DNA from: Candidatus Nanopelagicales bacterium
Lineage (GTDB): Bacteria; Actinomycetota; Actinomycetes; S36-B12
DNA length: 40,464 nt
Assembly (NCBI GenBank): GCA_036007925.1
Contig: DASYOJ010000119.1
Span: forward strand, 1 to 40,464
Direction: 5' to 3'
A program made the translations under genes and the position numbers. Below the pieces are notes generated by a model, which was given only the letters and a program-made list of their open reading frames with translations, searched no databases and had not been told where the DNA came from. Positions 5,463 through 27,782 of this stretch are shown here, one piece after another. The number at the start of each line of letters is the position of its first letter. Position 1 is the first letter of the stretch.

Positions 5463-6166
5463 GGCCCACCGAGATACATGATCTGCCCGGTCACGAGTTG
5501 GCTGCGCTCATCGAGGAAGAACGACACCGTCCAGTAGACGTCCTCCATGGTGGCTGGCTCCGACGAACTCAGCCGGGCCTGCAAAGCATCCAACGCGCTA
5601 CGCGGCACGCCGGAGGTCAGGTCGGTCGCGATCGCGGACGGCCCGATTGCATTGACCGTGATACCCCACTCGGCAAATTCCCGAGCCATCACTCGAGTCA
5701 GGTGCTCAACAGCCGCCTTACTTGCTCCATAGGCGGCCTCGCCCTCAAGGTGCAGTGGTACGGCAATCGAGGAAAGGTTCACGATCCGCGGCGACGCACT
5801 CTTGCGCAGGGCCCGCAGCGCCTCTCGGGACACCGTGAAGGTACCTACCGTATTTACCTCGAACATCCGAGCGACGGATTCAGTGGATGCCAAAGCAGCC
5901 GCGTTCATGGAGGCTATTCCGGCGTTGTTGACAACGGCGTCCAACCCACCGAAGTGCCGCTGGACGCGCCGGATTCCGGCGCGAACCGATTCAACATCCG
6001 TGACGTCCATTGGGAAGGACAGTTCCCGGGCACCCTCGACTTCCGCGCAGGTCCGGCTCACCGAAGCGACCGCCCAGCCATCGGCCACGAGGCGCTGGGC
6101 CAGGAACTCGCCGATTCCTCGACTCGCTCCAGTGATCAGGGCTACACGGCTCACGAAGCACCTCAC
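5459..6166 (-). CDS. Short-chain dehydrogenase/reductase (FabG-like)
   Basis: 235 aa. Rossmann motif ITGASRGIG, NNAG and catalytic YGASKAAV (YxxxK). GTGA overlap with the upstream ACP stop. Confidence 0.88.
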   Translation of the reverse strand: MRCFVSRVALITGASRGIGEFLAQRLVADGWAVASVSRTCAEVEGARELSFPMDVTDVESVRAGIRRVQRHFGGLDAVVNNAGIASMNAAALASTESVARMFEVNTVGTFTVSREALRALRKSASPRIVNLSSIAVPLHLEGEAAYGASKAAVEHLTRVMAREFAEWGITVNAIGPSAIATDLTSGVPRSALDALQARLSSSEPATMEDVYWTVSFFLDERSQLVTGQIMYLGGP

Positions 6167-6465
6167 CCACCCGAAGGGGTGGCCACTTGCTCGATGACGA
6201 AATCGCGAATGGTGCCGACAGTTCGCAAGGGACTGCGTTCCCGCGACATCGCTGTGTCGCTGGTCAAGGAAACCTCCGCACCGAAGTCCTCGTCGATACG
6301 CGCTTCGATCTCCATGACCACGGATACCAACCCCACGGAATCCAAGAAGGCCTCGGGCCCAATGAGCAAAGTCTCCGAATCCACCTGGGCAACCTCGATG
6401 CCGCGCTCGTCGGCGATCTGTCGAACCACCTCGATGATGACCGCTTCAGCGTCTTCGGGCGTCAC
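6163..6465 (-). CDS. Free-standing acyl/peptidyl carrier protein
   Basis: 100 aa, acidic helical protein with the phosphopantetheine-site-like FLDSVGLVSVVMEIE. GTGA overlap with the upstream methyltransferase stop. Confidence 0.75.
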   Translation of the reverse strand: MTPEDAEAVIIEVVRQIADERGIEVAQVDSETLLIGPEAFLDSVGLVSVVMEIEARIDEDFGAEVSLTSDTAMSRERSPLRTVGTIRDFVIEQVATPSGG

Positions 6466-7157
6466 TGCTGCACGCCTTTGATGGCGATTTCGAAGCCGAG
6501 GGCGAATGGACCGTCCTCGGGTGCGGTGATGACAGTGCGATCGGTCAAGCCTGCGGCTTCGATCAGTGCACGGGCATCAGCCAGCGACAACTTCTCCTCC
6601 ACGATCGACTCCGGTACGCCGTACTTCTCCCGCTCGGCATTGAAGGCGGCGCGGGCGTCGGGGTGCGCATCACGACGCACATCATGGATGACCACCATGC
6701 CATCGGGCGCCACCACACGAGCCATCTCCTTCACCGCCTCGAGCGGATCACGGAAGTGGTGCAAGGTCGAGCGGCTGATCACCAACGCAGCTGACGCGTC
6801 GGGAACGGGGAGTTCGTGAGCATCCCCGAACCGCACTTCCACCTGCGAACTCAACCCTGCTTCGGCCACCGCACGATTCGCCTCGGCAACCATGTCATCG
6901 AAGGAGTCCAGCCCGATGAACTGCAATTGCTCCAGTTCCGGTTCACGGGCAGCTCGGACGAGGAACTGCGCGGTTCCCGTTCCGATATCGACTAAGGTGC
7001 CTGTGCTGTCGCCGCGTTCGGACAGGATCTGCCCCAGCCGCCAGACCAAAGCATCGTCGAAGTGGCGCACGGCATTGGCGGTGTATTCGTCGTACTTGCT
7101 TGCGGAGTAACGGACCGCGAGGTCCTCCTCCATCTTCGGAACGCTTCCTTCGCTCAT
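6462..7157 (-). CDS. Class I SAM-dependent methyltransferase
   Basis: Motif I is LVDIGTGTAQF. Start set at the ATG (7157) in an ATGA overlap with the upstream gene's stop (7154-7157). The ORF track extends to 7181. Confidence 0.82.
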   Translation of the reverse strand: MSEGSVPKMEEDLAVRYSASKYDEYTANAVRHFDDALVWRLGQILSERGDSTGTLVDIGTGTAQFLVRAAREPELEQLQFIGLDSFDDMVAEANRAVAEAGLSSQVEVRFGDAHELPVPDASAALVISRSTLHHFRDPLEAVKEMARVVAPDGMVVIHDVRRDAHPDARAAFNAEREKYGVPESIVEEKLSLADARALIEAAGLTDRTVITAPEDGPFALGFEIAIKGVQQ

Positions 7158-9266: not shown

Positions 9267-10204
9267 GTCGCGAACTGCCCCATCCGCACGTAGATAAGCC
9301 GATCGGGATCCTGCGATTCGGTGCGTCCGTGCGCGGTTGTCGTGTTGTTGACCGCGAGGATCTCCCCCGGCTGCCAATCCACTCGCTGCTCCAGAGCTTC
9401 ACCGGCTGCGTAGACGGCGTAGACGATCTGCTCGGGAACACGCTCACCCTCGGGAGTGCGGATAACGATCGGCGGAGTGCGTCCTGACTCCTCGTGTAGG
9501 ACATCACCCGCCGTCCCAGCATCGGCGATCTGTTCACCGAACCACACCGGCAGCAGGCTGCTGAGCAGCCGCTCGGTTCCGTCGACACCGGCGACGATCG
9601 CGCTAGTCCGATATTGAGTGGTCACCACATCAGACTCGCGGTTGTACGTCATGGTGGTGTTGTTGGCCTGACAGATGCGATCCACCTCGTCGAGATCCTC
9701 GGTCATGAACGCCTGCCGCCAATCGGATCCTTCGAGTCGACGGTGGTAGACGAGATCATTCGCCCGCAGGTACTCGCGCACTTCCTCGGGCAGTGCTGCC
9801 AACAACTCGGCGCCATCGCACACGGTCGTCTCGCCACCTCCTCCCGCGGGCGGCACCTGGCAGTAGAACCACAAGACCTGTGGTCGCTCCTGGAAGTAGT
9901 ACATCTCCCCGTGCAGTGGAACCGGGAACGTCTGCGTGGATCCCGTTGCTGTCAGGATCGACGATTCGGTGTCGACCGTGGCTCGGTCGAGGGACCCAAA
10001 CCGGAACCCACCACCGCGGTAGTCGTGCCAGTCGGCGCAGATGGCATCGCTGATGGACACGAAATCATCGAGCGACGCATCGAACCCGCGGATCGCAACG
10101 CTTCCGGCGGTACGCAGCGCTCGGGCCACCTCCTGCGGATCGATGTCCGCGAACGACGAATCGTCGGACTCCTTCCTGATGGTCACGAGTGTGTCAGTGG
10201 TCAT
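9263..10204 (-). CDS. TauD/TfdA-family Fe(II)/2-oxoglutarate dioxygenase
   Basis: PLHGEMYY (HxE), GGGETTVCDG and TTAHGR (distal His plus Arg). About 313 aa from the ATG at 10204, which forms an ATGA overlap with the PKS stop. Confidence 0.78.
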   Translation of the reverse strand: MTTDTLVTIRKESDDSSFADIDPQEVARALRTAGSVAIRGFDASLDDFVSISDAICADWHDYRGGGFRFGSLDRATVDTESSILTATGSTQTFPVPLHGEMYYFQERPQVLWFYCQVPPAGGGGETTVCDGAELLAALPEEVREYLRANDLVYHRRLEGSDWRQAFMTEDLDEVDRICQANNTTMTYNRESDVVTTQYRTSAIVAGVDGTERLLSSLLPVWFGEQIADAGTAGDVLHEESGRTPPIVIRTPEGERVPEQIVYAVYAAGEALEQRVDWQPGEILAVNNTTTAHGRTESQDPDRLIYVRMGQFAT

Positions 10205-13200
10205 GTTTGATCCCTTCGCTCGTAACAGATTCCCAATACCGCCCCCGGGGGCCGCAAGAGCATCACCGGCCACAACGTGCTCGCATCGTCGGGTCCAGCC
10301 ACGATCAGCGAGTGCTTCCAGGGATCGCGCGCCATCACCGGCCAGCGGCGGATGTTTCCGCCGAGTCCAGTTCCCACCGCCTTCGCGGCTGCTTCCTTCG
10401 CAACGAGCACTTCGATGGTTCGGGTGACTCCCGATTCGACCATCTCGCTCTCCCGCTCCGTCAGGGCGCGGTCGATCGCGGCTGTATCGCGATCGCTGGC
10501 CTCGATATCAATACCTAGTACCGCTCCAGGACGGGCTGCACCCGCCACGATCATGGACTTGCTGTGGGTCAAGGACACCACCGGGACCCCACCGATCGAT
10601 TCCAGCGGCGGGCAATGCACGTAGGGCGCACCTTCCGTGGTCGTCAGGATCTCGACGTCGGCAGGTTGTAGATCCACTCCGTGGTGATGCAAAACCCACG
10701 CCCGCACCGCATCCTTCATGGCGATTCGGCCCAGCAACCATTCGATCCGTCGGGCTGGCTGCGCCCGCATTCCGTACCAGGAGCGCCGTTCACCGGCGGT
10801 CAGTGATACGTGCGCAAGGACACGCGACCAGATCCCGTACCCCGAAACCAGGAAGTCCGGTTGCACCTCGGTGATGGCCCGCAACGTGACCGGAGGTGGC
10901 CCCACCGGCCAATCGACGCTGAGCATCTCGCGTGCCGGATTCAACAGGTACATCAAGAAACGGGTCGGGAACGCGAAGACCCGTTGCCGTAGACCAACGA
11001 ATCGGGCCACAACGCTTCCGGATCCATCGATGATGTCGATGTCCGCGCACGTGCCGACATCGTCGCTTTCGCGGATACGCACCTCGAACCGAACGGGTGT
11101 GCCCTCAGGGATCAGCGGACCGTAGACCTCGTACGCCTCCGCGAAGTAGGGGAATGCGCCCACGGTCTGTGCGTTGTGCTCGTTGGCCCAAAAGGACACG
11201 AGCTGGCCGCAGGTATCGGCAAGGAACGGATCCATCTCCATGCGGGGACGCAGTGAGTAATCGGGGTGCAGATCCACCCGACGACGACGTCCCCGGGCCC
11301 TCACACGATCCCCTGTCACCTCGTCCACCACTTCCACGGCCCGGAAGGCCGGGCCGTGGAAGAGGCCGGAGTACAGACCCCGCGCCGGGCCTTCGGACCA
11401 ATCATCCGAAGCTCCCGGGGGCGCTGGCAGATAGCGATCGGCGAGCACCACCTGCGCTTCGAAGGCCACGTACTCCGGACCGGCATCCGAGGGATCCGCC
11501 GGTGCGATATGCGGATCGCGGATCACCACCACCCGAACGTCCACGAGATCTTCCCCGGATTGCGTCGCTTCGATTCGGACGGTGGCCTCACCTGCATCGA
11601 GGGCGACCCAGCGGTGAGCGCGCATGTTGCGCACCTGCGTGCAGACCAGGTGATCACCCACAAGATCGCGGGCTGCTTGGGCCACCATCTCCATGCTCGC
11701 GGTGAAGGGGACCACTGCCAACGGTGTCAATGACGAATCGCGCTGTGAGACCACACCACCGATCGCGTGGTGGGCGACGGCGGGATCGGTATCGGAACGG
11801 AAGACCTTGATGTGCGTCGATGAATGAGCCGTGCGCTCCACGCACTCACCGAGTATCCATTCGCGATCGCTGCGGCTCTCTTCGAACAACTCCTCCCCGA
11901 CGATCGCACGCACGGCCGCCGATCCCATCACTGTCTCCTGGGCCTGAACGAACTGACGCATGAGCGTCAGATGGGTCTCCAATGCATGGGCGTGATCACC
12001 GGAACTCGCGCGGCGCGCGATCGGTTCCCCGATGCTTGGCTCCAACTCCAGCAGGTCCACCGGGTCTTCGATCCGGTCCCCGAGAGCGCCGCGGATGCGG
12101 TGCAGCCACGTGACATCGACATCCAGGCCGTGGATCCACAGCGCCGCGAGCGTACGCAGGGAGGTGGTGAGTGTCCCGGCCGCAGAGTCCATGGATAGAA
12201 CAAGAACACCCGTTCCACGCAACACGTCGGTGGAACATGCGCTGAGCATCGTGCCCGGGCCTACTTCCACGAGGCACGTCAATGCCTGTTCTTCGACCAT
12301 CCGGGCGACCGTCGCGGCGAAGTCGACTGGCTTCCACCATTGCTCTGCGAGCAGATCACGGATTGAGTCGGCATCGGCGTCGACCCGTTCCCGGGTGGAA
12401 CACGAGTACCAGGGGAGTCGCGCACGGCGGACGTCGATGTCCTGGTACGCCTCGCGCATCATCTCGGCGCGAGGGGTGAACGCTTCGGTGTGGTAGGCCA
12501 ACGTGAACGGTAGTTCCCCGATCAGTGTCCCCGGAGCGCGCACTGCGGCCAGGAATTCCTCTCGATGCTCGTCGGCAACCCAGACCACGCAGACGTTCGG
12601 TGCGTTTATGTTCGTGATGACGGCCGTGGGTGTCTGTTCGACCACGCTGCGGACGTCTTCAACCGCTCGACCATTGATGGCGAATGTGGCACCGGGCGGC
12701 AGCGGGAATCTCTCGGCAGCGGCAACTTGGACTTCGGTAACCCGCGCGATCGCGGGCATCAACGCATCGGTGCGCATTCCGCTGACCGCACCGCTGATCA
12801 CACCGGCGGCGAATTCCCCACTCGATTGGCCGAGCACCGCCGATGGCGCTACTCCTAGCCGGGCGAGGGTGTCTGCGGATGCCACGCTCGAAACGGCGAG
12901 GCTCTGCGTCCCACCGAACACGCCCGATAGTTCCGACGGATCGGTGGGTGCCAGCGGTTGCGACCACATCTTGGTGGTCATCGGCTGCACGTCCGACGCA
13001 ACCAGAGTGGAATCGAGTTCGACGAACCAATCCTCCACCGATGGCAGGCAGGCTGCGAGGTCCTGGAACATGCCCGGACGCTGGGAACCCTCCCCGGGAC
13101 AAAGGAAACCCACCTTCGGATGCTCGACTGGTACCCCCAAGACGGTGCCGTCGGGGCTGCGGAGTCGGTCCTTCCCGCCATTGATCGCGGTAATGATCCG

Positions 13201-14631
13201 ATCGATCCGGGCCACTGCCTCATCAGCCGACGCAGCTACCAAGCCGGCCCGATGCTCGGAATTCAACGCCGGACGCTTCGACGCGACAGTCGACAACTGC
13301 ACGCCGTCGAGAAGTTCGTCTCGAGCCGCGCTCAGTGACTGGCGAAGCGTTTCGAGATCCGAGCCGCCGAACAGAAGTACTTCGACCGGCCAGTGGGCTG
13401 GAGCGGGTCGGGATTCGCGTCGCGACTCTTCGATGACCACATGCGAATTCGCTCCACCGAAGGCGACGGTGTTGACGCCCATGCGCCGCACGCCACTGCG
13501 TAGGGGCACGGGCGTGAGGGTGGTGGCCGCGACCTGCTCGCTGTTCATCTCGATGCGACGCCGGGGTCCGGTTCCGACTGACGGGGTGATCACCCCGTAG
13601 TGCACGCTCAAGATGGCCTTCATCAATCCGCCCATGCCGCCAGCGGCCAGGGCGTGACCCAAAAGCCCCTTCACCGAACCCACGAGCCAGGGTTGCTCGC
13701 CGCGTAACCGCTCCAGCGTTCGCCACTCGGAACGATCACCGATGTCCGTTCCGATGGCGTGAGCCTCGACTGCGGAGATGTCGTCGGGCCCGAGTCCGCC
13801 GATGCGCCAGGCTTGCTCGATCGCACTGGCCAAGCCCTCGGGCCGAGAAGTCAACAAACCCAAGCTGCGCCCGTCGCTGGATTGACCGACCGCGCGGATG
13901 TCGGCGTATGACTCACCCGCACGGATGTCCGTCGTGCGCTTGAGGACGAGGAAACCAACACCTTCACCGATGAGAGTGCCCACGGCATCGGACATGAAGG
14001 GACGGCATTCATCATCCGCCAACATGTCCACGGCCGCGAAGGACTCTTGGACACCGCGGTCCAACCACGGTCCGACCGCACCCACCAAAACCGCATCGAC
14101 CGTACCCGCGGCCAGCATCAGCCGGCCGGTCTCCACGGCAGCCACGGCCGAAGAGCACGCAGCATCCACCACCTGCTGCGGACCGTGCAGATCCAACTCC
14201 GACGCGATCCGTCCGGCCAGCAGATTGGGGTGAATCGAGGTCACCAGATCGCTGTCCATCTGGTGACCGTGGGCCCATGCTTGTTGCGGACGGCCCAACA
14301 GGGTGGAAGTGCCGACCAGCACAGCGCACGAGCGCCGCAACTGCTCGTCCAGGCCCGCATCGCGAACCGCCCGACGTGCCACATCGACCGCTATCAAGTG
14401 CCACGGCTCACCCACGCGCAGTACCGACGGCGCCGGGAGCGATTCGCGATCCATGACCAACGGTGCGAACCCGCCGAATCGCGGACCCGCGCTTTCCGCG
14501 CGGAGGGTGGGCGCCTGGGACGTCTGCGGCACTCCTCCGACGAGCACCGACCAAAGCCGGTCGAGGTCCGGCGCACCGGGGAAGGTCGCAGCCATGCCCA
14601 CAACGCTCGTCGTGGTGTGCGGATTCGTCAT
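10201..14631 (-). CDS. Iterative type I PKS/PUFA-synthase-like protein B: KS-AT-DH-PPTase
   Basis: KS motifs DAACSS, EAHAIGTDIGD and KGLLGHALAAGG. AT motif GQSSGEF. DH motifs AHHAIGGVV..LAVVP, LFHGPAFR and DTCGQL. C-terminal PPTase motifs WLLGRIAMKDA, LGIDIE and VAKEAAAKA. ATG at 14631 forms an ATGA overlap with protein A's stop. Confidence 0.9.
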   Translation of the reverse strand: MTNPHTTTSVVGMAATFPGAPDLDRLWSVLVGGVPQTSQAPTLRAESAGPRFGGFAPLVMDRESLPAPSVLRVGEPWHLIAVDVARRAVRDAGLDEQLRRSCAVLVGTSTLLGRPQQAWAHGHQMDSDLVTSIHPNLLAGRIASELDLHGPQQVVDAACSSAVAAVETGRLMLAAGTVDAVLVGAVGPWLDRGVQESFAAVDMLADDECRPFMSDAVGTLIGEGVGFLVLKRTTDIRAGESYADIRAVGQSSDGRSLGLLTSRPEGLASAIEQAWRIGGLGPDDISAVEAHAIGTDIGDRSEWRTLERLRGEQPWLVGSVKGLLGHALAAGGMGGLMKAILSVHYGVITPSVGTGPRRRIEMNSEQVAATTLTPVPLRSGVRRMGVNTVAFGGANSHVVIEESRRESRPAPAHWPVEVLLFGGSDLETLRQSLSAARDELLDGVQLSTVASKRPALNSEHRAGLVAASADEAVARIDRIITAINGGKDRLRSPDGTVLGVPVEHPKVGFLCPGEGSQRPGMFQDLAACLPSVEDWFVELDSTLVASDVQPMTTKMWSQPLAPTDPSELSGVFGGTQSLAVSSVASADTLARLGVAPSAVLGQSSGEFAAGVISGAVSGMRTDALMPAIARVTEVQVAAAERFPLPPGATFAINGRAVEDVRSVVEQTPTAVITNINAPNVCVVWVADEHREEFLAAVRAPGTLIGELPFTLAYHTEAFTPRAEMMREAYQDIDVRRARLPWYSCSTRERVDADADSIRDLLAEQWWKPVDFAATVARMVEEQALTCLVEVGPGTMLSACSTDVLRGTGVLVLSMDSAAGTLTTSLRTLAALWIHGLDVDVTWLHRIRGALGDRIEDPVDLLELEPSIGEPIARRASSGDHAHALETHLTLMRQFVQAQETVMGSAAVRAIVGEELFEESRSDREWILGECVERTAHSSTHIKVFRSDTDPAVAHHAIGGVVSQRDSSLTPLAVVPFTASMEMVAQAARDLVGDHLVCTQVRNMRAHRWVALDAGEATVRIEATQSGEDLVDVRVVVIRDPHIAPADPSDAGPEYVAFEAQVVLADRYLPAPPGASDDWSEGPARGLYSGLFHGPAFRAVEVVDEVTGDRVRARGRRRRVDLHPDYSLRPRMEMDPFLADTCGQLVSFWANEHNAQTVGAFPYFAEAYEVYGPLIPEGTPVRFEVRIRESDDVGTCADIDIIDGSGSVVARFVGLRQRVFAFPTRFLMYLLNPAREMLSVDWPVGPPPVTLRAITEVQPDFLVSGYGIWSRVLAHVSLTAGERRSWYGMRAQPARRIEWLLGRIAMKDAVRAWVLHHHGVDLQPADVEILTTTEGAPYVHCPPLESIGGVPVVSLTHSKSMIVAGAARPGAVLGIDIEASDRDTAAIDRALTERESEMVESGVTRTIEVLVAKEAAAKAVGTGLGGNIRRWPVMARDPWKHSLIVAGPDDASTLWPVMLLRPPGAVLGICYERRDQT
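10231..10878 (-). other. Protein B integrated Sfp-type 4'-phosphopantetheinyl transferase domain (approximate)
   Basis: SLTHS, LGIDIE and LVAKEAAAKAVG ((F/W)xxKEAxxKA), plus the N-terminal pseudo-repeat WLLGRIAMKDAV. Confidence 0.8.
10966..11868 (-). other. Protein B PKS-type double-hotdog dehydratase domain (approximate)
   Basis: HHAIGG...P (HxxxGxxxxP-like), GLFHGPAFR (YGPxF-like) and DPFLADTCGQL (DxxxQ). Confidence 0.7.
12241..13119 (-). other. Protein B acyltransferase domain (approximate)
   Basis: FLCPGEGSQ...GQSSGEFAAG nucleophile elbow and LAYHTEAF. Confidence 0.75.
13426..14610 (-). other. Protein B ketosynthase domain (approximate)
   Basis: Active-site Cys in VVDAACSS. Both His motifs are present but deviant (HAIGT instead of HGTGT). 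Confidence 0.8.
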
Positions 14632-17600
14632 CTCGTCCACGGCCCGTCTCCGATCACGATGTCGACGAAACCCGGATCCACTGCAGCCGATGCCGCCTCG
14701 ATAACGAAAGCACGCGCTCCAACTGTCGGCTCGATGACATGGATCCCGCGCTCGCGCAGTAGATCAGCGACGACTTCGCTGACCATGCCCTGCAGGCCGG
14801 TTCCGAACCACGGTCCCCATTGGATGGCGCGCACTCCCGTTACAGGCCAACGCTCGGCCCAACTGGCGGCAAGGACAGTCATGGCCTCATTGGCCGCTGC
14901 GTACGCGGACTGCGCGGGGTTACCGAAGGCTCCCGTCACGCTGCCGAAAACCACCATCCAGGACGGAATATTCTCCGCCCGTGCCAGGGACCGGCATACG
15001 TTGTCCAGGCCGAGCACCTTGGTCTCGATCACCGCGCGAGCATCGGTGAGGTCGAGTTCGACCAGCGGTGCATCCCGCACGATTCCCGATCCGAAGACAA
15101 CGCCGTCAATGCGACCGTGCTCGGTTAGCACCGCATCGATCACCGAATCGACTTGCGCGATATCGCGGACATCCGCCGGCAGCGCTTGCCAACCCTCGGG
15201 CAACTCCCATTCCGCAGCCGATCTGCCGACCACGATCACGGTGCAATCCGGCAGGGCTTCCACTGCGGCACGTGTGATGCCCCGAGCGCCGCCGAAGGCA
15301 AGCACTACGTTCCCCCGAAGCACCGACAGGTCGACGTCACTCACCACCTGCTCGGCGAGGCGCATGTCGATCGAACGAAGCCCCGTCTCCTCGGAAATGC
15401 GGAGTCTGGTGGTCGCATTCTCGCCTCGCTCTGCGGCTACACAGCGGGCGGCGGCGGCGACAGTCCGCACCGGGCCTACCGCCCCTTCGATCACCGACAG
15501 GTCGGACGGCGAGGTTTGCCACCGGGAGAGGGCGTCCATCGCCGATTCGATGAGCACGGCTGCGGCCTTGCTGTGATCGTCAGCGTGTACCTCGCTGGTA
15601 CAGAACGCTTCGCCAGCGACCACCGGCACGTCGACCCACGTGCGCACCCGACGAGGAACCTCCACTTCATCGCCGGAAGATGCTCGTGCTTCGCTGCCGT
15701 CTTCTTGCAGAGCTACGACGATCTCGCGAACGGTGCGCAACCGACTCAAGTCCACGCCCTCGCGCCGCTCGATGCCCAGCCGTTCACGCAGCATGGACAA
15801 GATCTCCACGCGCTTGATGGAATCCACCCCGAGTTCGGATTCCAGGTCCATGTCCGCTCCGATCACACCCGGATCGAACCCGGTGCGATCGCTGATGAGT
15901 GCTACGAGGACTTCCTGGATGTCGGCAGGAGCGCTCGAGTCCGGCATCGACGCGGCGGCAACCGGCTCATCGCGCTTGGGCTCCACGAGAACCTCACGCT
16001 GCGCAACCCCGGGAGTGAGCCGCGGCGTGGGTGGAGTGATGCGTGGGCGGCGAACACCGCCGGATGTCTGGCCGAGGGCCTGGTCCATCACCTGCTCGTG
16101 AACCCGCAGGAAGTCTTGCATCGTGCGCTGGAACTCCACGACCGCATCGCTAGAGCCGATGTTCGTCGCTGCAAGCACCTGCCCGGCGGTCTGCGCCGTC
16201 AGCATCGGCTCCCGGCCGTCGTAATCGCCATCCATCCGACCGCGACGTACGCCTCCACCATCGACGAACCAGGTGGTGTCGTCGGTGCCACGCAGCGCGT
16301 CTTCACCGGGCACCGGGAGTCGACCCTCGAACAGTGCCTGCACGCTGTCCACCGCACCGAGCGTCCACAACTCGCCGATCGCATCGAGGACACCGGACAT
16401 CGGGCGCCCGGGTCGTTCCAGCGGCACGACGCGGGCGTTCGGATCGATCTGTGTGATCAACGACGACGCAGTCGAACCGGGCCCCATTTCGACGAAGACC
16501 GATACCCCTGCCTCGACCGCCCGTTGGACTTGCTCCACGAATCTCACCGGCTGCATCAGGTGGTCGGACATCCGCTGGCGAATCTCTTCGACGCTCGCCG
16601 GGTACGACGCACCATCGGCATTACCGATGACCGTGATCGACGGAGGGGCGAGCCGATAGCCGGCGATTGCGCCCGTCAACGGGCCGATCGCATCGGTCAT
16701 CAATGCCGAATGGAAGGCACCGCCAACGGGAAGGACCACCGCCGATGCTCCAGTGTCCGACGCACGACGCGCAATGTCCTCGACATCAGCGCGGGCTCCG
16801 GAGACCACCATTTGGCGGGGGGCGTTGAAGCACGCCACCGTCGCTTCAGTTCCTGACACCAATTCGGCGGCCGTGTCTGCATCGATCTCAAGGGCCGCCA
16901 TTGTGCCGCGGCCGTCGTCGCTCGCGGCCATTGCGGCGCCGCGCACGCGCGTTAGATCGACCAGGTCCTCGCGACCCAAGACTCCAGCACGGTGCAGCGC
17001 CATGAACTCGCCGTAGGAATGACCGAAGGCAACCGTTGGACGAACACCCAACGAGTCCAGCAAGTCCGCCAAGCCCATGCCGAGCGCAGCGAGGGCGCTT
17101 TGCGCCATCCGGGTATCGGCGATCCTGGAGCGCTGCGCGTCGGCCTCGTGATCGGATCGCGCGCGGAACGGATAGATGGTTTCGATGAGGTTGTAGGGCA
17201 GTTCATCACCGATAAGCGCATCGACCAGCGCAAGTGTCCGGCGAAGGTCCGGAAGATAGACCGAGGCCTCGCGCAGGCTATTGATCCGTTGCGCGGCCTG
17301 TCCCGGGAAGATCTCGGCGACGTTCGGAGGTGTGGTCACCTCGACGAGGTCGCTGTAGTCGTCTTCCTTCCATCGGGTTGCACATTCGCGCAGTTGCCCT
17401 GCCGCATCGAGCGGATCGAGCATCACGAGCGCGAAGCGCCACGGCCCACTCGCAGCGCGCGCCGCACCGTGGGCGACGTTTCGAGGAATGCTGCCGCGGA
17501 TCTCCAACTCCGCCGCCAACCGTTCGGCCTGCTGCGCGGCATCACTCGGCGTACTGGCTCCGATCACCAGCAACTCGGCTGGCCAGCGCTGTGCACCGAC

Positions 17601-20600
17601 AGCCGCGCCATCAGCTGATTCCAAGACCACGTGGGTGTTGGTTCCACCGAAACCAAAGGCGCTGACCGCGGCGAAGCGCGCCGGATCGAGCCACGGCACG
17701 GACTTGTCGTACAGGACCACCGAGCCGGCCTCGTCCCGAAGCGAGTCGATAGGTGCCTGGACGCTCGGCTGCCCTGGTCGTACCCCGTGATGCAAGGCCA
17801 TGGCCGCCTTCATCAGGCCCAGCACCCCGGCACCAGCCTTCGCGTGACCCATCTGTGCCTTGATCGAACCGACCGAACACGATGTGGACGACAACCCACG
17901 AACCTCACTGATCGTGGTGATCTCCGTTCGATCACCGACAACCGTCCCGGTGCCGTGCGCTTCATAGAGCCCCACCTGTGCAGGCTCGACATCGCAACTG
18001 TCATAGGCACGGCGCAGCGCGAGTTGCTGACCGGAGCTTTGTGGAGCAGTCAGGCTCAAGCCGCGACCATCCGAACTCGAGCCACTACCGCGGATGACCG
18101 CGTAGATGCGATCCCCATCTCGCCTGGCGTCCTCGAGGCGCTTGAGCACGAGAATTCCCACCGCTTCGCCGATCACGATGCCATCAGCGGACTCATCGAA
18201 CACATGGGCTCGATCTCTCGGTGACAACGCGTGGCTTGCGGCAAACGACAAGTACACGCGCGGCGCCATCGCGGTATCCGCGCCGCCGGTGATGACGACA
18301 TCGGTCCGACCGGTTTCCAACTCACGGATAGCAGCCTCGACCGCAGCTAAGGACGATGCGCACGCCGAATCGACGGTGTGATTCGGCCCCTTGAAGTCGA
18401 AGCGGTTGGCGATGCGTCCGGTCGTTACGTTGTTCAAGAAGCCGGGGAAGGACTCTTCGGTCCAACTCGGGAGTCTGCTCCATGCTTGTTCCTCCACGGC
18501 TGCACTGACACTGGAAAGCATCGCCCGTGCGGCGTACCCCTCGCCGATATCGCCACTGCTCGAGGACATTCCGACGATCACCCCGACTCGGGATCGATCG
18601 ACGCGACTGGCGTCGAACCCGGCGTCGGCCAAGGCTCGACGTGTTACCTCCAGGGCGATCAACTGTGCCGGTTCGATGTGCGCAAGGGCCGTGGGCGGGG
18701 TGCCAAAGCGCATGGGGTCGAAGGGGATCGGATCGATGAAGCCGCCATGAACGGCCACCGTCGGATCCGGGGCTGCCGGATCAGGATCGAGTACCCGCGC
18801 TGGATCGAATCGCTCGGGGGGAATCGGTCGAGTGGCCACCCGCTGCTGCACCACGGTGTCCCAGAAACCAGCAAGATCACTGGAATCGGGAGCTACGACG
18901 GACATCCCGACGATGGCCACCGGGACCGACTTGATGGCATCTGCGCGATGTGGCGCTTTCGTATCCCAGGTCGCATCGATCACCTCCCGGCCTCCGGCTA
19001 GGACGTCTTCGTGCAGCGCAGCGATGTTGGTCACGTGCGCGTGCATCGTCGCAACATCCCCGAGCATGTACATGCCTTCACGCAACTGCCGATCGCGGTC
19101 GACCGAGACAACCGCCTCCCCCTCACGGATCTCGGCGCGGCTTGCCATGCGCAGCCGTCCGAGGGTGAGGGCTTCGAGGTGACTCGATCGGGTTTCCGGA
19201 TCCACACCGGTCAGTTCGCGAGCTCGTGCTTCGAACTCCGAAACGAAACCGCTCATCGCAACTCGCGTGGAGTGGCCCACCGCGGTGGTGACCGTGCTCG
19301 TGCGATCGCACGACAACGCAACATCTTGGAACAATTGAGGAATCGCCCCACTGCTGACCGCTTCCTCAGTGAACAAGTACGCGGTTCCCATCAGCAAGCC
19401 GACGGACACTCGATCGAGGAGGCCGCCGAGTTCCCAGGATGCGAGCGTGGCAGCCGCCGCCGAACTCACCGAATCGTGGATGCCCCCTGCAAGGAAGACC
19501 GAGGCCTGCGCGGACTCATCTGCTCGGAGTAGATCGGCGATCTCATGGAGCGCCGACTGCCACAAGACCGCACTCGAGAGCGGGCCGACATGGCCGCCGC
19601 ACTCGTACCCTTCGAGGACGAAGCGTCGAACCCCCGCTTTCCACAGCAAAGACACGATCCGTGCAGTTGGAGCGTGCGCATAGGTGATGATCCCGTGCGA
19701 TTCGAGATCGAGCACCTGATCGGGGCGGGCGCCGGCAACCACCGCAACCGAAGGCCGGGTACGCAGCACCGCTTCATGTTGCGGCTGCCAGATGTCCTGC
19801 GGCGCGAAGCCGAGCATGCCAACACCCCACGCGCGATCGGCGAGTTCCGCGCTCGTCTCGCTGAGTACGTCATTTGCTGCCGGGCCCCGCTTGAGAGCAA
19901 GGGCCACGAGCGGCAACGCACCTTCCTGCGCCACCGCACTCGCGAATCCCGGGACATCGCTGACTCTGGTCATCGGCCCTTGAACGAGCGGTGCCCCAAG
20001 GCCTAGTTCCCCGCACAGCGGCGAACCACTTCCGAGCAGACTCTCGGCGCGCGCCGCAAGCGCCGCTTCGGGATCGAGCCGGTAGCCCGACAGCACCGTA
20101 GATAGCGGCCGATCGACGTTCTGCCACGCGATCGCCAGCCCCTGACCCACGGGAATGAGATCGGAGAAAACATCCCGCCAACCCCACGGCAAGTCCTCAC
20201 TTCCACGATCGAAATCCGCCACCAGCGATGCTTGGACCTCCTGGGCAACGGGCAGGTTTCCCCGCAGCAGGAAACGCACTTGCCTGTCTGCTGGTCCGAG
20301 CGCCACCGCTTCGGTTCCATCAAGGTCGCGCACGGTACTGCGTAGCCCGGTGATCCGCGCTTGGCTTGTCAACACCAACTCATCGCGCAACACCACACCA
20401 GCAGCACCTGCAGTTCGCAGTGCTGCGGCAATGGACGGACTGATCGCACCGAAGGCGAGCACCTCACGTGCCCCTACTTTGCGCGCTTGCTGTAGGAGGA
20501 TCGCGGTAGATGTCGATCCGATCGCTCCGCCGGATTCCGACCCGCGCACAACCACGTGATCGTCGCTCGCGAACAACTCGACGATGCGCTGCGCATCGGT

Positions 20601-20936
20601 GACTTCGAGCCATGCCTGCGCACCAGTCGAAGCGAGTTGCTCGCGGATCGACATCCAATCGTCAACAGGATCAGCCCACGAATCGCTCACGATCACGCTC
20701 ACGCCCGGAGCAGCCTCTGGCTGAATCTGTGTCCACTGCGATGGCGTCACTCGGAGAACGAAGCGATCGCACTGCTTGCTCATCAATCGGATGTCGATGA
20801 GGCGATCACGGATCGCGGTGTTCGCCAGATCGAGGCCCGGTGTCACCTCTGCCGACGAGCACGAGCGCACCCACTCCTGGATTCGGATGACGTCCCCCGG
20901 CGGCGAATCGGGAACGCGTAGCGCAACGGTGATCAC
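14628..20936 (-). CDS. PUFA-synthase-like type I PKS protein A: degenerate NMO-like domain, PfaD-like ER, KS, AT, ACP, KR
   Basis: 2102 aa. ER motifs LVQGPMTRVSD, LEGYECGGHVG and FLAGGI. KS motifs VDSACASS, YEAHGTGT and IKAQMGHAKAGAG. AT motifs GHSYGEF and GAFHS. ACP motif LGVDSIKRVEIL. KR motifs FGGARGITRA and S...YAAAN. GTGA overlap with the GT stop at 20933-20936. Confidence 0.93.
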   Translation of the reverse strand: MITVALRVPDSPPGDVIRIQEWVRSCSSAEVTPGLDLANTAIRDRLIDIRLMSKQCDRFVLRVTPSQWTQIQPEAAPGVSVIVSDSWADPVDDWMSIREQLASTGAQAWLEVTDAQRIVELFASDDHVVVRGSESGGAIGSTSTAILLQQARKVGAREVLAFGAISPSIAAALRTAGAAGVVLRDELVLTSQARITGLRSTVRDLDGTEAVALGPADRQVRFLLRGNLPVAQEVQASLVADFDRGSEDLPWGWRDVFSDLIPVGQGLAIAWQNVDRPLSTVLSGYRLDPEAALAARAESLLGSGSPLCGELGLGAPLVQGPMTRVSDVPGFASAVAQEGALPLVALALKRGPAANDVLSETSAELADRAWGVGMLGFAPQDIWQPQHEAVLRTRPSVAVVAGARPDQVLDLESHGIITYAHAPTARIVSLLWKAGVRRFVLEGYECGGHVGPLSSAVLWQSALHEIADLLRADESAQASVFLAGGIHDSVSSAAAATLASWELGGLLDRVSVGLLMGTAYLFTEEAVSSGAIPQLFQDVALSCDRTSTVTTAVGHSTRVAMSGFVSEFEARARELTGVDPETRSSHLEALTLGRLRMASRAEIREGEAVVSVDRDRQLREGMYMLGDVATMHAHVTNIAALHEDVLAGGREVIDATWDTKAPHRADAIKSVPVAIVGMSVVAPDSSDLAGFWDTVVQQRVATRPIPPERFDPARVLDPDPAAPDPTVAVHGGFIDPIPFDPMRFGTPPTALAHIEPAQLIALEVTRRALADAGFDASRVDRSRVGVIVGMSSSSGDIGEGYAARAMLSSVSAAVEEQAWSRLPSWTEESFPGFLNNVTTGRIANRFDFKGPNHTVDSACASSLAAVEAAIRELETGRTDVVITGGADTAMAPRVYLSFAASHALSPRDRAHVFDESADGIVIGEAVGILVLKRLEDARRDGDRIYAVIRGSGSSSDGRGLSLTAPQSSGQQLALRRAYDSCDVEPAQVGLYEAHGTGTVVGDRTEITTISEVRGLSSTSCSVGSIKAQMGHAKAGAGVLGLMKAAMALHHGVRPGQPSVQAPIDSLRDEAGSVVLYDKSVPWLDPARFAAVSAFGFGGTNTHVVLESADGAAVGAQRWPAELLVIGASTPSDAAQQAERLAAELEIRGSIPRNVAHGAARAASGPWRFALVMLDPLDAAGQLRECATRWKEDDYSDLVEVTTPPNVAEIFPGQAAQRINSLREASVYLPDLRRTLALVDALIGDELPYNLIETIYPFRARSDHEADAQRSRIADTRMAQSALAALGMGLADLLDSLGVRPTVAFGHSYGEFMALHRAGVLGREDLVDLTRVRGAAMAASDDGRGTMAALEIDADTAAELVSGTEATVACFNAPRQMVVSGARADVEDIARRASDTGASAVVLPVGGAFHSALMTDAIGPLTGAIAGYRLAPPSITVIGNADGASYPASVEEIRQRMSDHLMQPVRFVEQVQRAVEAGVSVFVEMGPGSTASSLITQIDPNARVVPLERPGRPMSGVLDAIGELWTLGAVDSVQALFEGRLPVPGEDALRGTDDTTWFVDGGGVRRGRMDGDYDGREPMLTAQTAGQVLAATNIGSSDAVVEFQRTMQDFLRVHEQVMDQALGQTSGGVRRPRITPPTPRLTPGVAQREVLVEPKRDEPVAAASMPDSSAPADIQEVLVALISDRTGFDPGVIGADMDLESELGVDSIKRVEILSMLRERLGIERREGVDLSRLRTVREIVVALQEDGSEARASSGDEVEVPRRVRTWVDVPVVAGEAFCTSEVHADDHSKAAAVLIESAMDALSRWQTSPSDLSVIEGAVGPVRTVAAAARCVAAERGENATTRLRISEETGLRSIDMRLAEQVVSDVDLSVLRGNVVLAFGGARGITRAAVEALPDCTVIVVGRSAAEWELPEGWQALPADVRDIAQVDSVIDAVLTEHGRIDGVVFGSGIVRDAPLVELDLTDARAVIETKVLGLDNVCRSLARAENIPSWMVVFGSVTGAFGNPAQSAYAAANEAMTVLAASWAERWPVTGVRAIQWGPWFGTGLQGMVSEVVADLLRERGIHVIEPTVGARAFVIEAASAAVDPGFVDIVIGDGPWTR
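14802..15314 (-). other. Protein A ketoreductase catalytic subdomain (approximate)
   Basis: VVLAFGGARGITRA Rossmann motif and the S/Y/N triad in SVTGAFGNPAQSAYAAANEA. Confidence 0.8.
15702..15923 (-). other. Protein A single ACP domain, PUFA type (approximate)
   Basis: DLESELGVDSIKRVEILSML. The Ser codon is at 15819-15821. Confidence 0.85.
16437..17324 (-). other. Protein A acyltransferase domain (approximate)
   Basis: FPGQAAQ, GHSYGEF and GAFHS (malonyl-type HAFH-like). Confidence 0.85.
17619..18926 (-). other. Protein A ketosynthase domain (approximate)
   Basis: Catalytic Cys codon at 18360-18362 (DSACASS), plus HGTGT and GHAKAGAG. Confidence 0.88.
18987..20003 (-). other. Protein A enoyl reductase domain, PfaD/nitronate-monooxygenase type (approximate)
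   Basis: GPM motif, ECGGHVG, AGGI and MGTAYL. Confidence 0.8.
20352..20714 (-). other. Protein A degenerate NMO/TIM-barrel-like repeat (approximate)
   Basis: HVVVRGSESGGAIGSTSTAILLQQ ... VLAFGAISPSIAAALRTAGAAGVVL parallels the true ER segment RFVLEGYECGGHVGPLSSAVLWQS ... VFLAGGIHDS. It has Ala in place of the GGH histidine and FGA in place of AGG. Confidence 0.55.
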
Positions 20937-22213
20937 GCGACCGCCCTGCTTCCCAGCAGATGGTCGATGAGGAAGTCGGCCCCGGTGCGGACTCCGTCGT
21001 CGTGGGCGATGGATTCGGCGAGGTCCTGCGCGCGGGTGCGGTAACGGGGTTCATCCACGGCATTGCCGATCGCCCGAGCCAGCGATTCGACCTTCAGTTC
21101 CTGGATCGGGAGCGATGCCGGAGCTACCCCCAAGGCCAGTGCGCGATATCCCCAGAAGGGTTGATCCAGACAGAACGGAACCACTACCTGCGGAACGCCG
21201 GCGCGGTAGGCGGCAGCGCTGGATCCCACCCCGCCGTGGTGAACGAACGCCCGTACCCGCGGCAGCAGCCAGTCATGCGGGAGTCGGTCCACCACCAAGA
21301 CATCATCACCACGGACCGAATCCGGATCGAAGGCACCCCATCCACTCAACAGCAGGACTCGTTGACCGGCCCGACGGGCCGCCTCGACCACGGTGCGCGC
21401 CAACGCCCGCGGATCGGGAGCGACCACGCTGGAGAATCCGACCGCGATCGGCGCATCTCCTCCTTCGAGGAACTGCCTCACCTCATGCGGCGGTTGCCAG
21501 GATCCATCAGCGGGCAACCGCCAGTAGCCGACCACTCGCGCCTGCTGTGGCCAGTCCGGTGGTTGCGGAATCACCGCCGGGCTGACACCCACCACAGTGG
21601 GCAGTGCGCGCAAGCGTCGAAGGCTCTGCCTGCTGGATTGAATCGGCAGCCCAAGACGTTCGGCCTCCGCGCCCATGATCTGCACCATCGGACCCGAGCC
21701 CAGCCGATTCAGCGCATCAACAGCCCAGTGACCGAAACGCTGCCCCACGGGTCCGAACCGGGACCAACCCGGCTGCCACAGCGGAGGAAGGGTGCGCGTT
21801 GGCAGTGAGGGGAAGATCGAGGCGACCGCGGCTGGGATGTGCCGCTGATGGGCGAAAGGCGCAGCCCACGCCATCGAGTAGTCCAAGATCACCTTGTCCG
21901 AGGAGTCGATGCAATACGTGATCGCGCGCGCGAGTTGCGCGGTGAAATACGGAAGCGCCTTGCCGTAGAAGCCCGCGATGGAGCGAATGCCCCGGCCCGG
22001 CTCACGAAATGCTCGACCCTCGTCGGTTTCGTAGAAGGCTCGAGTGTCGCCCGGCATCGGGTAGAAGCTCATGCCGCGCTCGATGCACGATGCGCGGTAG
22101 TTCATGTGCGTAGCCATGCGAATGTCCACGCCTTGCTCGACCAGCCCGGTGGCCAACGCGATCATCGGCTCGACATCACCGTTGGTGCCGACGGTCAGCA
22201 CGGTGATCCGCAT
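20933..22213 (-). CDS. GT1-family glycosyltransferase (MGT/UDP-glycosyltransferase-like)
   Basis: 426 aa. MRITVLTVGTNGDVEP N-terminus and the donor-binding HHGGVGSSAAAYRAGVPQVVVPFCLDQPFWG. Confidence 0.88.
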   Translation of the reverse strand: MRITVLTVGTNGDVEPMIALATGLVEQGVDIRMATHMNYRASCIERGMSFYPMPGDTRAFYETDEGRAFREPGRGIRSIAGFYGKALPYFTAQLARAITYCIDSSDKVILDYSMAWAAPFAHQRHIPAAVASIFPSLPTRTLPPLWQPGWSRFGPVGQRFGHWAVDALNRLGSGPMVQIMGAEAERLGLPIQSSRQSLRRLRALPTVVGVSPAVIPQPPDWPQQARVVGYWRLPADGSWQPPHEVRQFLEGGDAPIAVGFSSVVAPDPRALARTVVEAARRAGQRVLLLSGWGAFDPDSVRGDDVLVVDRLPHDWLLPRVRAFVHHGGVGSSAAAYRAGVPQVVVPFCLDQPFWGYRALALGVAPASLPIQELKVESLARAIGNAVDEPRYRTRAQDLAESIAHDDGVRTGADFLIDHLLGSRAVA

Positions 22214-22225
22214 GGCCGTTCCCTG

Positions 22226-22504
22226 CTACGGCCGCGATGGCGCGGCGGCCAGCGCATCGACGATTTCGGCGACGCTGAGATCCGATCGCGCCTTGCCGTC
22301 AGCTTCCAACAGCGCCTCTAGTTCCAAGACGACATCCAACCGATCCTCGGTGGTGGCGAGAACGTGCACGATGTCCACGGAAGACAACTGCAGGTCAGCC
22401 ACCAGCAACGTGGTGTCAGTGATGTCGACGTCGTCGTAGCCCAAACCGAGGAGAGTCGCACCGAGCACATCGGTGAGTGTCTCGCGGGCGAGGTCGGCGC
22501 TCAC
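22226..22504 (-). CDS. Free-standing carrier protein (ACP-like, deviant SSV motif)
   Basis: 92 aa, acidic. ADLQLSSVDIVHVLATTEDRL sits at the helix II position where DSL is usual. GTGA overlap with the flippase stop. Confidence 0.65.
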   Translation of the reverse strand: MSADLARETLTDVLGATLLGLGYDDVDITDTTLLVADLQLSSVDIVHVLATTEDRLDVVLELEALLEADGKARSDLSVAEIVDALAAAPSRP

Positions 22505-24150: not shown

Positions 24151-24163
24151 TTTTGTTCACCAC

Positions 24164-24201
24164 AACACCCCCGACGATCATGTGCGATCGCCAGGGGTGT
24201 T
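24164..24201. promoter_or_regulatory. Nested inverted repeat immediately upstream of the flippase start
   Basis: AACACCCC ... GGGGTGTT (8 bp arms) encloses CGATC-gcacat-GATCG. It lies in the 63-bp gap between the small gene (ends 24214) and the flippase ATG (24150). No U-tract follows. Confidence 0.35.
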
Positions 24202-24213
24202 CGCGTGGATCGG

Positions 24214-24504
24214 TTAGCCGACGTGCTTGGCCCAGGCGTCGAGGAACACCGTGGCGTCCTCGATCGGCAGGATCTCGGTCTCCGAGCCGTCGAAAAGCGG
24301 ATTACCACGGACCCAGCCAGCGAGTTCGTAACTCGAGTCGGCGTTGATCACGTAGACGTGACCGCCACTCAGCAGCACGTAGGCCGCCTCGATCTCGCCC
24401 GCAGCCATCGCCTTCTTCAATTCGTCGGAGCGGTAGCCCGCCTCGCCGCCGGAATGGTCGTACTTCACGTCGCCGTGACGACGGTTGATGATCATGAATT
24501 TCAT
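24214..24504 (-). CDS. Small (96 aa) hypothetical protein, possibly a ferredoxin-like fold (muconolactone-isomerase-like)
   Basis: Start taken at MKFMIINRRH, preceded by GGAGG at 7 nt spacing. The size and the pattern ...NPLF....E..P are reminiscent of muconolactone isomerase. That functional call is weak. Confidence 0.55.
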   Translation of the reverse strand: MKFMIINRRHGDVKYDHSGGEAGYRSDELKKAMAAGEIEAAYVLLSGGHVYVINADSSYELAGWVRGNPLFDGSETEILPIEDATVFLDAWAKHVG

Positions 24505-24647
24505 GGGTTTGCCTCCTAGTGGTATCCCAACCCTAGGGCCGGATCCGCGTCGTGAAAAGTGAGTTTCGAACATTTAACAAGCCGGTCATCTCGCGTCTAG
24601 GCGAAACCCCACAAATCCGGGTCTTTCGAAACCCGGAGCCCGCTCGA

Positions 24648-27775: not shown

Positions 27776-27782
27776 ATCGACT

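Follow-up and report, generated by a model that had tools for sequence, protein, structure and literature searches.

The DNA analysed here (hereafter the window) is a stretch of 40,464 nucleotides, positions 1 to 40,464 of contig DASYOJ010000119.1 in the GenBank assembly GCA_036007925.1, deposited as Candidatus Nanopelagicales bacterium. Two adjacent genes for large multidomain proteins lie on its reverse strand, gene A (14628..20936) and, directly downstream, gene B (10201..14640), the latter encoding a ketosynthase (KS), an acyltransferase (AT), a dehydratase (DH) and a 4'-phosphopantetheinyl transferase (PPTase) on one polypeptide. Our analysis indicates that protein B is probably the second subunit of a two-protein, iterative fatty acid synthase/polyketide synthase (PKS) resembling the polyunsaturated fatty acid (PUFA) synthases, i.e. 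a 'secondary lipid synthase', which it would form together with protein A.

Domain organization of proteins A and B

Gene B is a single open reading frame (ORF) of 1479 amino acids (aa), as judged from the ORF list, the translation and Pfam, with its stop codon at 10201-10203. Translation may start at GTG 14640 or at ATG 14631; the ATG, which was chosen in the preliminary description, would overlap the stop codon of gene A as ATGA. According to Pfam, the domain order is KS, KS-AT linker domain, AT, PKS-type DH, and Sfp-type PPTase, with matches to KS (PF00109/PF02801; aa 13-355, E 1.5e-35 and 5.8e-24), AT (PF00698; aa 512-808, E 2.2e-15), PKS_DH_N (aa 947-1037), PS-DH (aa 1091-1221, E 2.9e-11), and ACPS (aa 1375-1437). 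Every motif quoted in the preliminary description was found at its place in the translation, i.e. DAACSS at aa 159 (Cys162), EAHAIGTDIGD at aa 292 (His294), GQSSG at aa 604 (Ser606), and AYHT at aa 715 (His717), followed in the C-terminal part by WLLGRIAMKDA at aa 1301, SLTHS at aa 1356, LGIDIE at aa 1375, and VAKEAAAKA at aa 1413. Residue conservation was examined by aligning B with 15 full-length homologues from several phyla and later with 61 relatives. The catalytic residues of the KS, AT, DH, and PPTase of B are all intact.

Gene A (reverse strand, 2102 aa) lies directly upstream of gene B, and its stop codon overlaps the ATG of B as ATGA. Its Pfam layout is enoyl reductase (ER; NMO/FabK-like)-KS-AT (malonyl type)-acyl carrier protein (ACP)-ketoreductase (KR), and its best named family is NCBIfam PfaA, with a score of 669 bits that is under the cut-off of that model. 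The ACP of A (15717..15911, reverse strand; aa 1676-1740; Pfam PP-binding E 8.7e-09) contains the motif LGVDSIKRVEI with Ser1706, is the only carrier domain of the A/B pair, and is the presumed substrate of the PPTase of B.

The KS of B (13411..14613, reverse strand; aa 10-410), delimited by the two Pfam models and the invariants of the family alignment, retains Cys162, His294, Lys324, His329, Asp302, and Glu305. In the alignment of 61 relatives, the Cys/His/His residues are present in 54-55 of the 55-56 sequences that have a residue at those columns. As previously suggested from the conserved Cys, the domain is thus not a chain length factor (CLF), because all three residues are retained. Of the His motifs, described earlier as deviant, the first is indeed altered (HGTGT to HAIGT), but the second is normal (GLLGH, His329), as is the Lys that precedes it. 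The HAIGT variant is confined to the lineage of the window itself, i.e. to 4-5 sequences from freshwater actinobacteria. A domain-by-domain comparison of identities revealed that the KS and the PPTase are the most conserved parts of B.

B and its four closest homologues are without ~35-45 residues of the N-terminal half of the KS (around B aa ~100-165; window ~14150-14340; alignment columns 153-195), which are present in all other members of the 15-homologue alignment. In one relative, P0016 (1817 aa), the active-site Cys is replaced by Ser (DAASASS) and the His motif is a deviant EGHALGV, and in many full-length relatives (P0150, P0155, P0159, P0168, P0183, P0199, and others) the N-terminal ~400 residues no longer match the KS profile. 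These comparisons suggest that the KS may have stayed intact in some lineages and decayed to a PfaB-like degenerate KS' in others. It is conceivable that the KS of B does not elongate chains but serves as a CLF- or KS'-like structural or chain-length partner, or as a priming decarboxylase, such that only DH and PPTase would be catalytic, as in ArsD. The ArsA/ArsD pair described below, which is without a second KS-AT, would be in line with this explanation, as would the relatives outside the KS profile, the Ser of P0016, and the HAIGT variant and shortened KS of the window lineage. Nevertheless, all six residues listed above are kept in B, the Cys/His/His residues are nearly invariant across the family, and the domain is among the best conserved of the protein; we consider a non-elongating KS unlikely.

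The AT of B (12091..13125, reverse strand; aa 506-850) was identified by Pfam PF00698 and by alignment with the AT of A and with Escherichia coli FabD. The Ser606/His717 dyad is kept, with a GQSSG elbow. The AYHT motif noted earlier is present at aa 715, but it is better read as LAYH, i.e. as an xAxH motif; AYHT is typical of the aligned non-actinobacterial members, and the Streptomyces-type members have GFHT or GFHS. At the column of FabD Gln11, B has Glu, and E, L, or V is found across all 61 relatives. At the column of FabD Arg117, B has a hydrophobic residue (I, F, V, or L across all 61 relatives), and this column is followed by an insertion of 6-7 residues in B and its relatives; Arg633 of B sits two columns off and is unconserved. 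The AT of A, in contrast, keeps the malonyl-type residues, i.e. the Gln in FPGQAAQ, GHSYGE, the Arg in TRVRG, and GAFHS. The His-to-Gln change of the elbow is specific to the window lineage, and the relatives have GHSxG.

Judging from this alignment, the AT of B appears to be non-malonyl in character, as both the Arg and the Gln are missing, in agreement with the earlier proposal that this deviant AT may do something other than malonate loading. PfaB of the marine PUFA synthases is a terminal long-chain acyltransferase, and its AT is also without the malonyl-binding Arg (PMC12895367). By the same logic, the AT of B is probably PfaB-like and handles long acyl chains. We regard it as quite unlikely that this domain is a second malonyl-CoA:ACP transacylase serving the KS of B. 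Such a role would be compatible with the intact Ser-His dyad and the canonical GHSxGE elbow of relatives, and malonyl specificity has been predicted for the PfaA-like and PfaBC-like ATs of a different pfa-like cluster (PMC13291983), but the Arg and Gln columns have diverged in all 61 relatives while A retains both residues, the insertion follows the Arg column, and the window lineage has lost the elbow His, which stabilizes the malonyl-enzyme intermediate (PMC12895367).

The DH of B (10906..11850, reverse strand; aa 931-1245) is a PKS-type double hotdog domain, matched by Pfam PS-DH and PKS_DH_N. It retains His958 (HHAIGG), LFHGPAF, and Asp1142-x3-Gln1146, and both His958 and Asp1142 are found in all of the aligned relatives. 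An AlphaFold2 (AF2) model of the linker, DH, and PPTase (aa 840-1479) had a mean predicted local distance difference test score (pLDDT) of 83 and a predicted template modelling (TM) score of 0.80; Foldseek listed only DH structures for this model, the best matches being PksJ DH1 and CurF DH (E ~4e-18 to 1e-17, TM to target ~0.78).

The AT and DH are separated by a linker of 80 residues (11851..12090, reverse strand; aa 851-930) with one conserved helix at ~aa 883-914. No PP-binding match was obtained in the linker with Pfam at an E limit of 10, at which the HMMER filters discard most matches above ~0.1, and no DS[LIVM] carrier-like motif is present there. In the family alignment, only 17 residues lie between the conserved helix and the start of the DH, and the AF2 model shows low-confidence coil and one long helix in place of a four-helix bundle. 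A cryptic ACP in B was rejected on this evidence, and the earlier observation that no DSL/DSI motif exists between AT and DH holds: B contains no carrier domain. Only one member of the 15-homologue alignment, P0016, has a genuine ACP (GIDSIKRIE), which is inserted exactly at the position of the linker to give a KS-AT-ACP-DH-PPTase protein. As B is carrier-free, its PPTase, KS, AT, and DH would all have to act in trans on the ACP of A (Ser1706), as the preliminary description had proposed for the PPTase together with a possible action on two small ACP-like proteins.

These two small proteins are encoded on the reverse strand as well. The 92-aa protein (22226..22504) is a probable free carrier with a DLQLSSVD motif, for which the Pfam PP-binding match is below the cut-off (E 0.011, 16.4 bits), the NCBIfam ACP match has an E-value of 0.005, and the match to a PDB ACP has an E-value of 0.63. 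The 100-aa protein (6163..6465) is a possible free carrier by its FLDSVGLV motif and size; it has no Pfam match, and its PDB ACP matches are non-significant (E 0.29 and 0.44). The evidence for the carrier identity of both is weak. Small proteins that are ACP-like by motif or by a weak Pfam match also occur near the A/B pair in three other loci (L005, L008, and L009), and in contig L009 a protein of the same size occupies the same position as the 100-aa protein.

The PPTase of B (10204..10887, reverse strand; aa 1252-1479) contains the key residues His1359, Asp1378/Glu1380, and Glu1416/Lys1420, which presumably correspond to H90, D107/E109 (GxDxE), and E151/K155 of Sfp, and Arg1305/Lys1309 in its N-terminal half. 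His1359, Asp1378, Glu1416, and Lys1420 are conserved in 59-61 of the 61 relatives, and the column of Glu1380 contains E in 53 and Q in 6; the W/F position of the (W/F)xxKE(A/S)xxK motif is occupied by Leu or Val in the window lineage. ACPS (PF01648) matches the whole protein with 25.0 bits, which is exactly the gathering cut-off, and the excised C-terminal 249 residues with 30.0 bits, together with a weak 4PPT_N match (E 0.006). An AF2 model of aa 1250-1479 (mean pLDDT 93.6) yielded full-length Foldseek matches to AASDHPPT (E 4e-11), Sfp (2.6e-10), PptAb, and PptT (TM ~0.65-0.7), whereas AcpS structures cover only half of the model (~120 columns), and the N-terminal half matches Bacillus subtilis AcpS. 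According to the model, the domain is predicted to be a one-chain pseudo-dimer of ~230 aa with the Sfp-type (type II) fold. Motifs, Pfam, and fold thus bear out the earlier assignment of the C-terminal ~220 aa to an intact Sfp-type PPTase. The identity of the domain to ever more distant homologues (97, 88, 76, 51, and ~36%) is equal to that of the KS, which argues against a decaying relic. The idea that the domain is such a relic and that a stand-alone PPTase elsewhere in the genome primes the carriers, to which the borderline whole-protein score and the omission of the domain from the precomputed Pfam annotations of the four closest homologues might point, is hardly credible in view of the conserved catalytic residues, the conservation of the domain, the confident Sfp-type model, and the absence of any other PPTase among the scanned ORFs of the window.

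Relatives of the pair and comparison with known synthases

Full-length close homologues of B (1474-1481 aa) are 94, 85, and 73% identical to it, and a fourth is 51% identical; all are metagenomic, and beyond them identity falls to ~30%. The metagenome-assembled genomes concerned are labelled Candidatus Nanopelagicales, Actinomycetota, and Rubrivirga. Near-identical contigs (L001, L003, and L004 versus L002) carry conflicting labels, 'uncultured Rubrivirga sp.' as against 'Candidatus Nanopelagicales' and 'Actinomycetota bacterium'. The Rubrivirga label is probably a binning error, as the actinobacterial-type gene content (the DprE-like trio described below) favours Actinomycetota.

More distant KS-AT-DH-PPTase proteins were found in Solimonas, Fontimonas, Pirellulales, and Streptosporangium. 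In Streptosporangium, Pirellulales, and contig L009, a large PfaA-like gene with an ER-KS-AT-(ACP)-KR layout directly precedes and overlaps the B-like gene, and A is 39% identical to the Streptosporangium partner. In Solimonas, the PfaA-like gene directly precedes the B-like gene without overlapping it, and no ER was listed for it. An alpha/beta-hydrolase gene and often a small ACP gene occur near the pair in the Streptosporangium, Solimonas, and Pirellulales loci. The family is large. With the Streptosporangium B-like protein as a query, no fewer than 1234 protein clusters matched at E <= 1e-20; every one of the 120 matches listed has the domain layout of B, and Streptomyces and Kitasatospora account for most of these. 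The PPTase domain of B, searched exhaustively with HMMER, matched 1731 representative clusters (50% identity) at E <= 1e-3 and 634 at E <= 1e-10; a word-indexed search with the DH-PPTase half alone retrieved 9 proteins. The best 147 of the PPTase-domain representatives were parsed with profile hidden Markov models (HMMs) built from the domains of A and B. They are (KS/KS')-AT-(ACP)-DH-PPTase proteins, fragments, or PPTase-only proteins, nearly all multidomain ones having that layout, and approximately 9 of the 147, together with the fragments P0122 and P0125, are AT-ACP-DH-PPTase or ACP-DH-PPTase. No KR was detected among the 147 with these locally built HMMs, although divergent KR or ACP domains could escape them. 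Those relatives that carry a name are annotated as PfaA-like or 'beta-ketoacyl synthase N-terminal-like'.

Among plasmids, tblastn with the DH-PPTase half of B identified a locus on Beijerinckia indica plasmid pBIND02, which contains genes for a 2674-aa ER-KS-AT-ACP-KR protein (37% identical to A), two type III PKSs, a 629-aa DH-PPTase protein (27% identity to the C-terminal half of B over 485 residues, E 1e-31), and a glycosyltransferase (GT). The GT gene (L011, 13671-15047) directly follows the DH-PPTase gene and is itself followed by an ABC/RND-type export set, a GT-exporter pairing that echoes the window. This locus is a Type P (ars) cluster of Shulse and Allen (PMC3098273). The C22-C26 chain of the phenolic lipids of Azotobacter vinelandii is made by the fatty acid synthase ArsA, and ArsD has been described as a PPTase that modifies ArsA (PMC4824345, PMC3098273), which provides a precedent for a DH-PPTase protein acting in trans on an ER-KS-AT-ACP-KR protein. 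The ars systems thus share with the window the combination of an ER-KS-AT-ACP-KR subunit with a DH-PPTase subunit and have a long acyl product. However, the ArsD-like protein of Beijerinckia is without the KS-AT that precedes the DH-PPTase in B, and the two type III PKSs of the ars cluster take the chain directly, whereas the window has GT, flippase-like, hydrolase, and tailoring genes instead; family scans revealed no chalcone-synthase-like (ArsB/ArsC type) ORF in the window. In evolutionary terms, B reads as an ArsD-like DH-PPTase that may have received a KS-AT module at its N-terminus.

The arrangement of a fused PfaDA homologue beside a PfaBC homologue that carries a PPTase has already been described (PMC13291983, PMC3098273); it is very common in Actinobacteria, and B is a divergent addition to it. 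In the scheme of Shulse and Allen, Type M includes Renibacterium salmoninarum, Frankia, Actinosynnema, and Streptomyces avermitilis, and the PPTases of Type M-T share the motifs P1a, x(G/D)xP, and P1b', hShxH, but have no P0 motif, hRxhLS (PMC3098273). B contains P1a (EGAP, 1336-1339, in which Gly1337 and Pro1339 are invariant or nearly so) and P1b' (VSLTH, 1355-1359), and a reading of the sequence upstream within the PPTase domain revealed no P0. The two-gene arrangement and domain content of A/B also match the fused PfaDA and PfaBC-PPTase systems of Renibacterium and of the Aquimarina and Flavobacterium hybrid clusters. In contrast to the Type M-like systems, B is only ~30% identical to proteins outside its own uncultured lineage and is distinguished by HAIGT, GQSSG, the shortened N-terminal half of the KS, and other tailoring genes. 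In our literature search, no report of a product was found for the KS-AT-DH-PPTase type.

Comparison with the canonical PUFA synthases reveals partial similarities. Like B, PfaB has a KS-type domain followed by an AT without the malonyl-binding Arg and Gln, and PfaC combines an active KS with dehydratase function. PfaC, however, has a KS-CLF and two FabA-type DHs, whereas B has no CLF and a single PKS-type DH, so the formation of cis-polyenes (PUFA) is unlikely. The PPTase (PfaE) of the marine PUFA systems is normally a separate protein, in contrast to the fused domain of B. The heterocyst glycolipid synthase (Hgl, Type F) is also PUFA-synthase-like; its very long product chain, saturated or hydroxylated for the most part, is subsequently glycosylated, and the window has a GT gene beside the synthase. 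The likeness would be one of product logic only. The genes and domains are organized differently (HglE, HglD, HglC = KS-CLF-AT), the Hgl PPTase (HetI) is separate, and a fusion of DH and PPTase is not known from that system.

The enediyne PKSs (PKSEs), of which the in-cis C-terminal PPTase was taken as a mark in the preliminary description, have the layout KS-AT-ACP-KR-DH-PPTase on a single polypeptide and contain no ER. They are iterative type I enzymes whose C-terminal DH-PPTase pair resembles that of B, with a PPTase of the Sfp type acting on the ACP of its own synthase, but they differ in that ACP and KR lie on the same chain, whereas in the window both lie on A, which also has an ER. PKSEs and PUFA synthases are generally held to be related, and the DH-PPTase pair that PKSEs share with B may reflect common ancestry. 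A and B were considered as a PKSE domain set divided between two proteins and making a conjugated polyene precursor. The two proteins together hold all PKSE domains, B ends like a PKSE, and some relatives (P0016, P0122, P0125, and the ~9 of 147 mentioned above) correspond to a PKSE minus the KR; the kinship of the two enzyme classes points in the same direction. Against this, A begins with a PfaD/FabK-type ER, not expected in a polyene-forming PKSE, and has PfaA as its best named match, the pair has two KS-AT units and not one, no KR was detected between AT and DH in the 147 nearest representatives, and the GT, flippase-like, and alpha/beta-hydrolase neighbours suggest a lipid or glycolipid. 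The scanned ORFs of the window, which are of ordinary enzyme families apart from a few small ORFs without a match, show no sign of an enediyne cassette (E3/E4/E5) or of the hotdog thioesterase E10, although some enediyne cassette proteins may have no Pfam model. The distinction from PKSE was made by the described layout and by the domain content of the relatives; the 60 PDB matches listed do not include DynE8. We consider a divided PKSE very improbable. The C-terminal PPTase, moreover, is no mark of a PKSE, since ArsD-like DH-PPTase proteins and PfaBC-PPTase fusions carry one too (PMC13291983; PMC3098273).

Neighbouring genes in the window

The cluster genes upstream of A (20933..25532, all on the reverse strand and assigned by Pfam) encode a GT1 glycosyltransferase (20933-22213), a MATE/flippase-like membrane protein (22501-24150), and an alpha/beta-hydrolase (24648-25532). 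Directly downstream of B is a tailoring sub-cluster of seven genes (4119-10273, reverse strand; Pfam) for a TauD-family dioxygenase, an isopropylmalate/homocitrate-synthase-like enzyme that is below all NCBIfam cut-offs, two S-adenosylmethionine methyltransferases, one of which is CmcI-like, the 100-aa ACP-like protein, a short-chain dehydrogenase/reductase (SDR), and a short adenylate-forming ligase. Their PDB matches are generic (At3g21360 and a TauD/TfdA protein for the TauD-like enzyme; FadD13 and adenylation domains for the ligase), and the gene set matched no known pathway. The dnaK-grpE-dnaJ genes lie beyond this sub-cluster. Contig L009, whose B homologue is 73% identical, shares the gene order of the window from the flippase-like gene through to the ligase. 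GT, flippase-like, and hydrolase functional classes also adjoin the A/B pair in Streptosporangium, and Solimonas and Pirellulales likewise have an alpha/beta-hydrolase near the pair. For the small carrier, hydrolase, and GT, orthology to their Streptosporangium counterparts was considered and dropped, since the similarity is weak or absent; what recurs are the functional classes only.

Several other features of the window were recorded. A decaprenylphosphoryl-arabinose-like trio of consecutive genes (36737-39782, reverse strand) encodes an SDR, a FAD_binding_4/ALO oxidase, and a UbiA-family prenyltransferase; we take the first two to be DprE2-like and DprE1-like, respectively, which fits an actinobacterial host. 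A PutA-like bifunctional protein of 1133 aa with proline dehydrogenase and aldehyde dehydrogenase domains (30648-34049, forward strand) is encoded beside a divergent PAS-AraC regulator (29590-30279, reverse strand), and both are unrelated to the lipid cluster. In the ORF at 27433-28362 (forward strand), which overlaps the 3' end of a CCG/4Fe-4S gene (25589-27775), a PemK/MazF-like toxin domain is confined to the last 85 residues. The toxin gene proper probably covers much less than this ORF, and an antitoxin gene may lie just upstream of it. The only RNA gene found by Rfam and tRNA scans was a tRNA-Gly (CCC) gene (34511-34583, forward strand).

Proposed function of the A/B synthase

From these sequence comparisons, we infer that A and B act together as a single iterative synthase of the fully reducing kind. 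The two proteins, whose genes overlap, would be co-translated from one message. A would supply the ER, a KS, the malonyl-loading AT, the single ACP, and the KR, and B the only DH, a second, catalytically complete KS, the non-malonyl AT, and the PPTase. The PPTase of B would convert the apo-ACP of A (Ser1706) to the holo form in trans and would probably prime the small free carrier proteins as well. The ACP of A would then shuttle the growing chain between the KS, KR, and ER of A and the DH of B, which would be needed in every fully reducing cycle. The KS of B would probably take over elongation for part of the chain-length range, and the AT of B would most likely carry out a PfaB-like terminal transfer or off-loading of the long chain, after which completion and export of the product would fall to the alpha/beta-hydrolase, GT, and flippase-like protein. 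An ER, a single PKS-type DH without any FabA-type DH or isomerase, and the GT and flippase-like genes point to a long acyl chain, for the most part saturated or hydroxylated, which most likely ends in an exported glycolipid.

Several points weigh against this assignment of B to a PUFA-synthase-like lipid synthase. Our literature search found no biochemistry on any KS-AT-DH-PPTase protein, and for this reason we infer every step of the mechanism. HAIGT, a variant seen in this lineage alone, may affect decarboxylative condensation. The analogy with PfaB is partial, since PfaB has a GYSxG elbow and a dead KS' without Cys/His/His, whereas the elbow of B is GQSSG (that of relatives GHSxG) and its KS is intact. 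The small carrier, hydrolase, and GT are only weakly similar to those of Streptosporangium. Finally, the proposed equation with Type M rests on the descriptions given in two papers.

A more elaborate proposal, which is possible though doubtful, assigns the tailoring sub-cluster to the same product. In it, the KS-AT of B would be a transfer device rather than a redundant elongation module, and its AT would move the finished, very long chain from the ACP of A to the 92-aa carrier, which would also be primed by the in-cis PPTase. The ligase, SDR, two methyltransferases, and the isopropylmalate-synthase-like and TauD-like enzymes would build a small acid on the 100-aa carrier, to which the chain would be joined before glycosylation and flipping. 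If true, this hand-off would yield an envelope glycolipid of a new class and give the very large KS-AT-DH-PPTase family its first assigned function.

With regard to the secondary lipid synthase proposed for A and B, the architecture itself would be unsurprising to specialists. For annotation, it follows that a KS-AT-DH protein with a PPTase at its C-terminus should not be taken for an enediyne synthase; the PPTase would instead mark a large family of secondary lipid synthases resembling the PUFA synthases (634 representative clusters at 50% identity). How the two subunits share the work appears to be readable from their residues, with a malonyl-type AT, ACP, KR, and ER in A and a non-malonyl AT, the only DH, and the PPTase in B, and through the link to ArsA/ArsD, a model with an experimental basis is available for such pairs. 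Expression of A and B would give the first product of the family and would test whether an in-cis PPTase serves several carriers.

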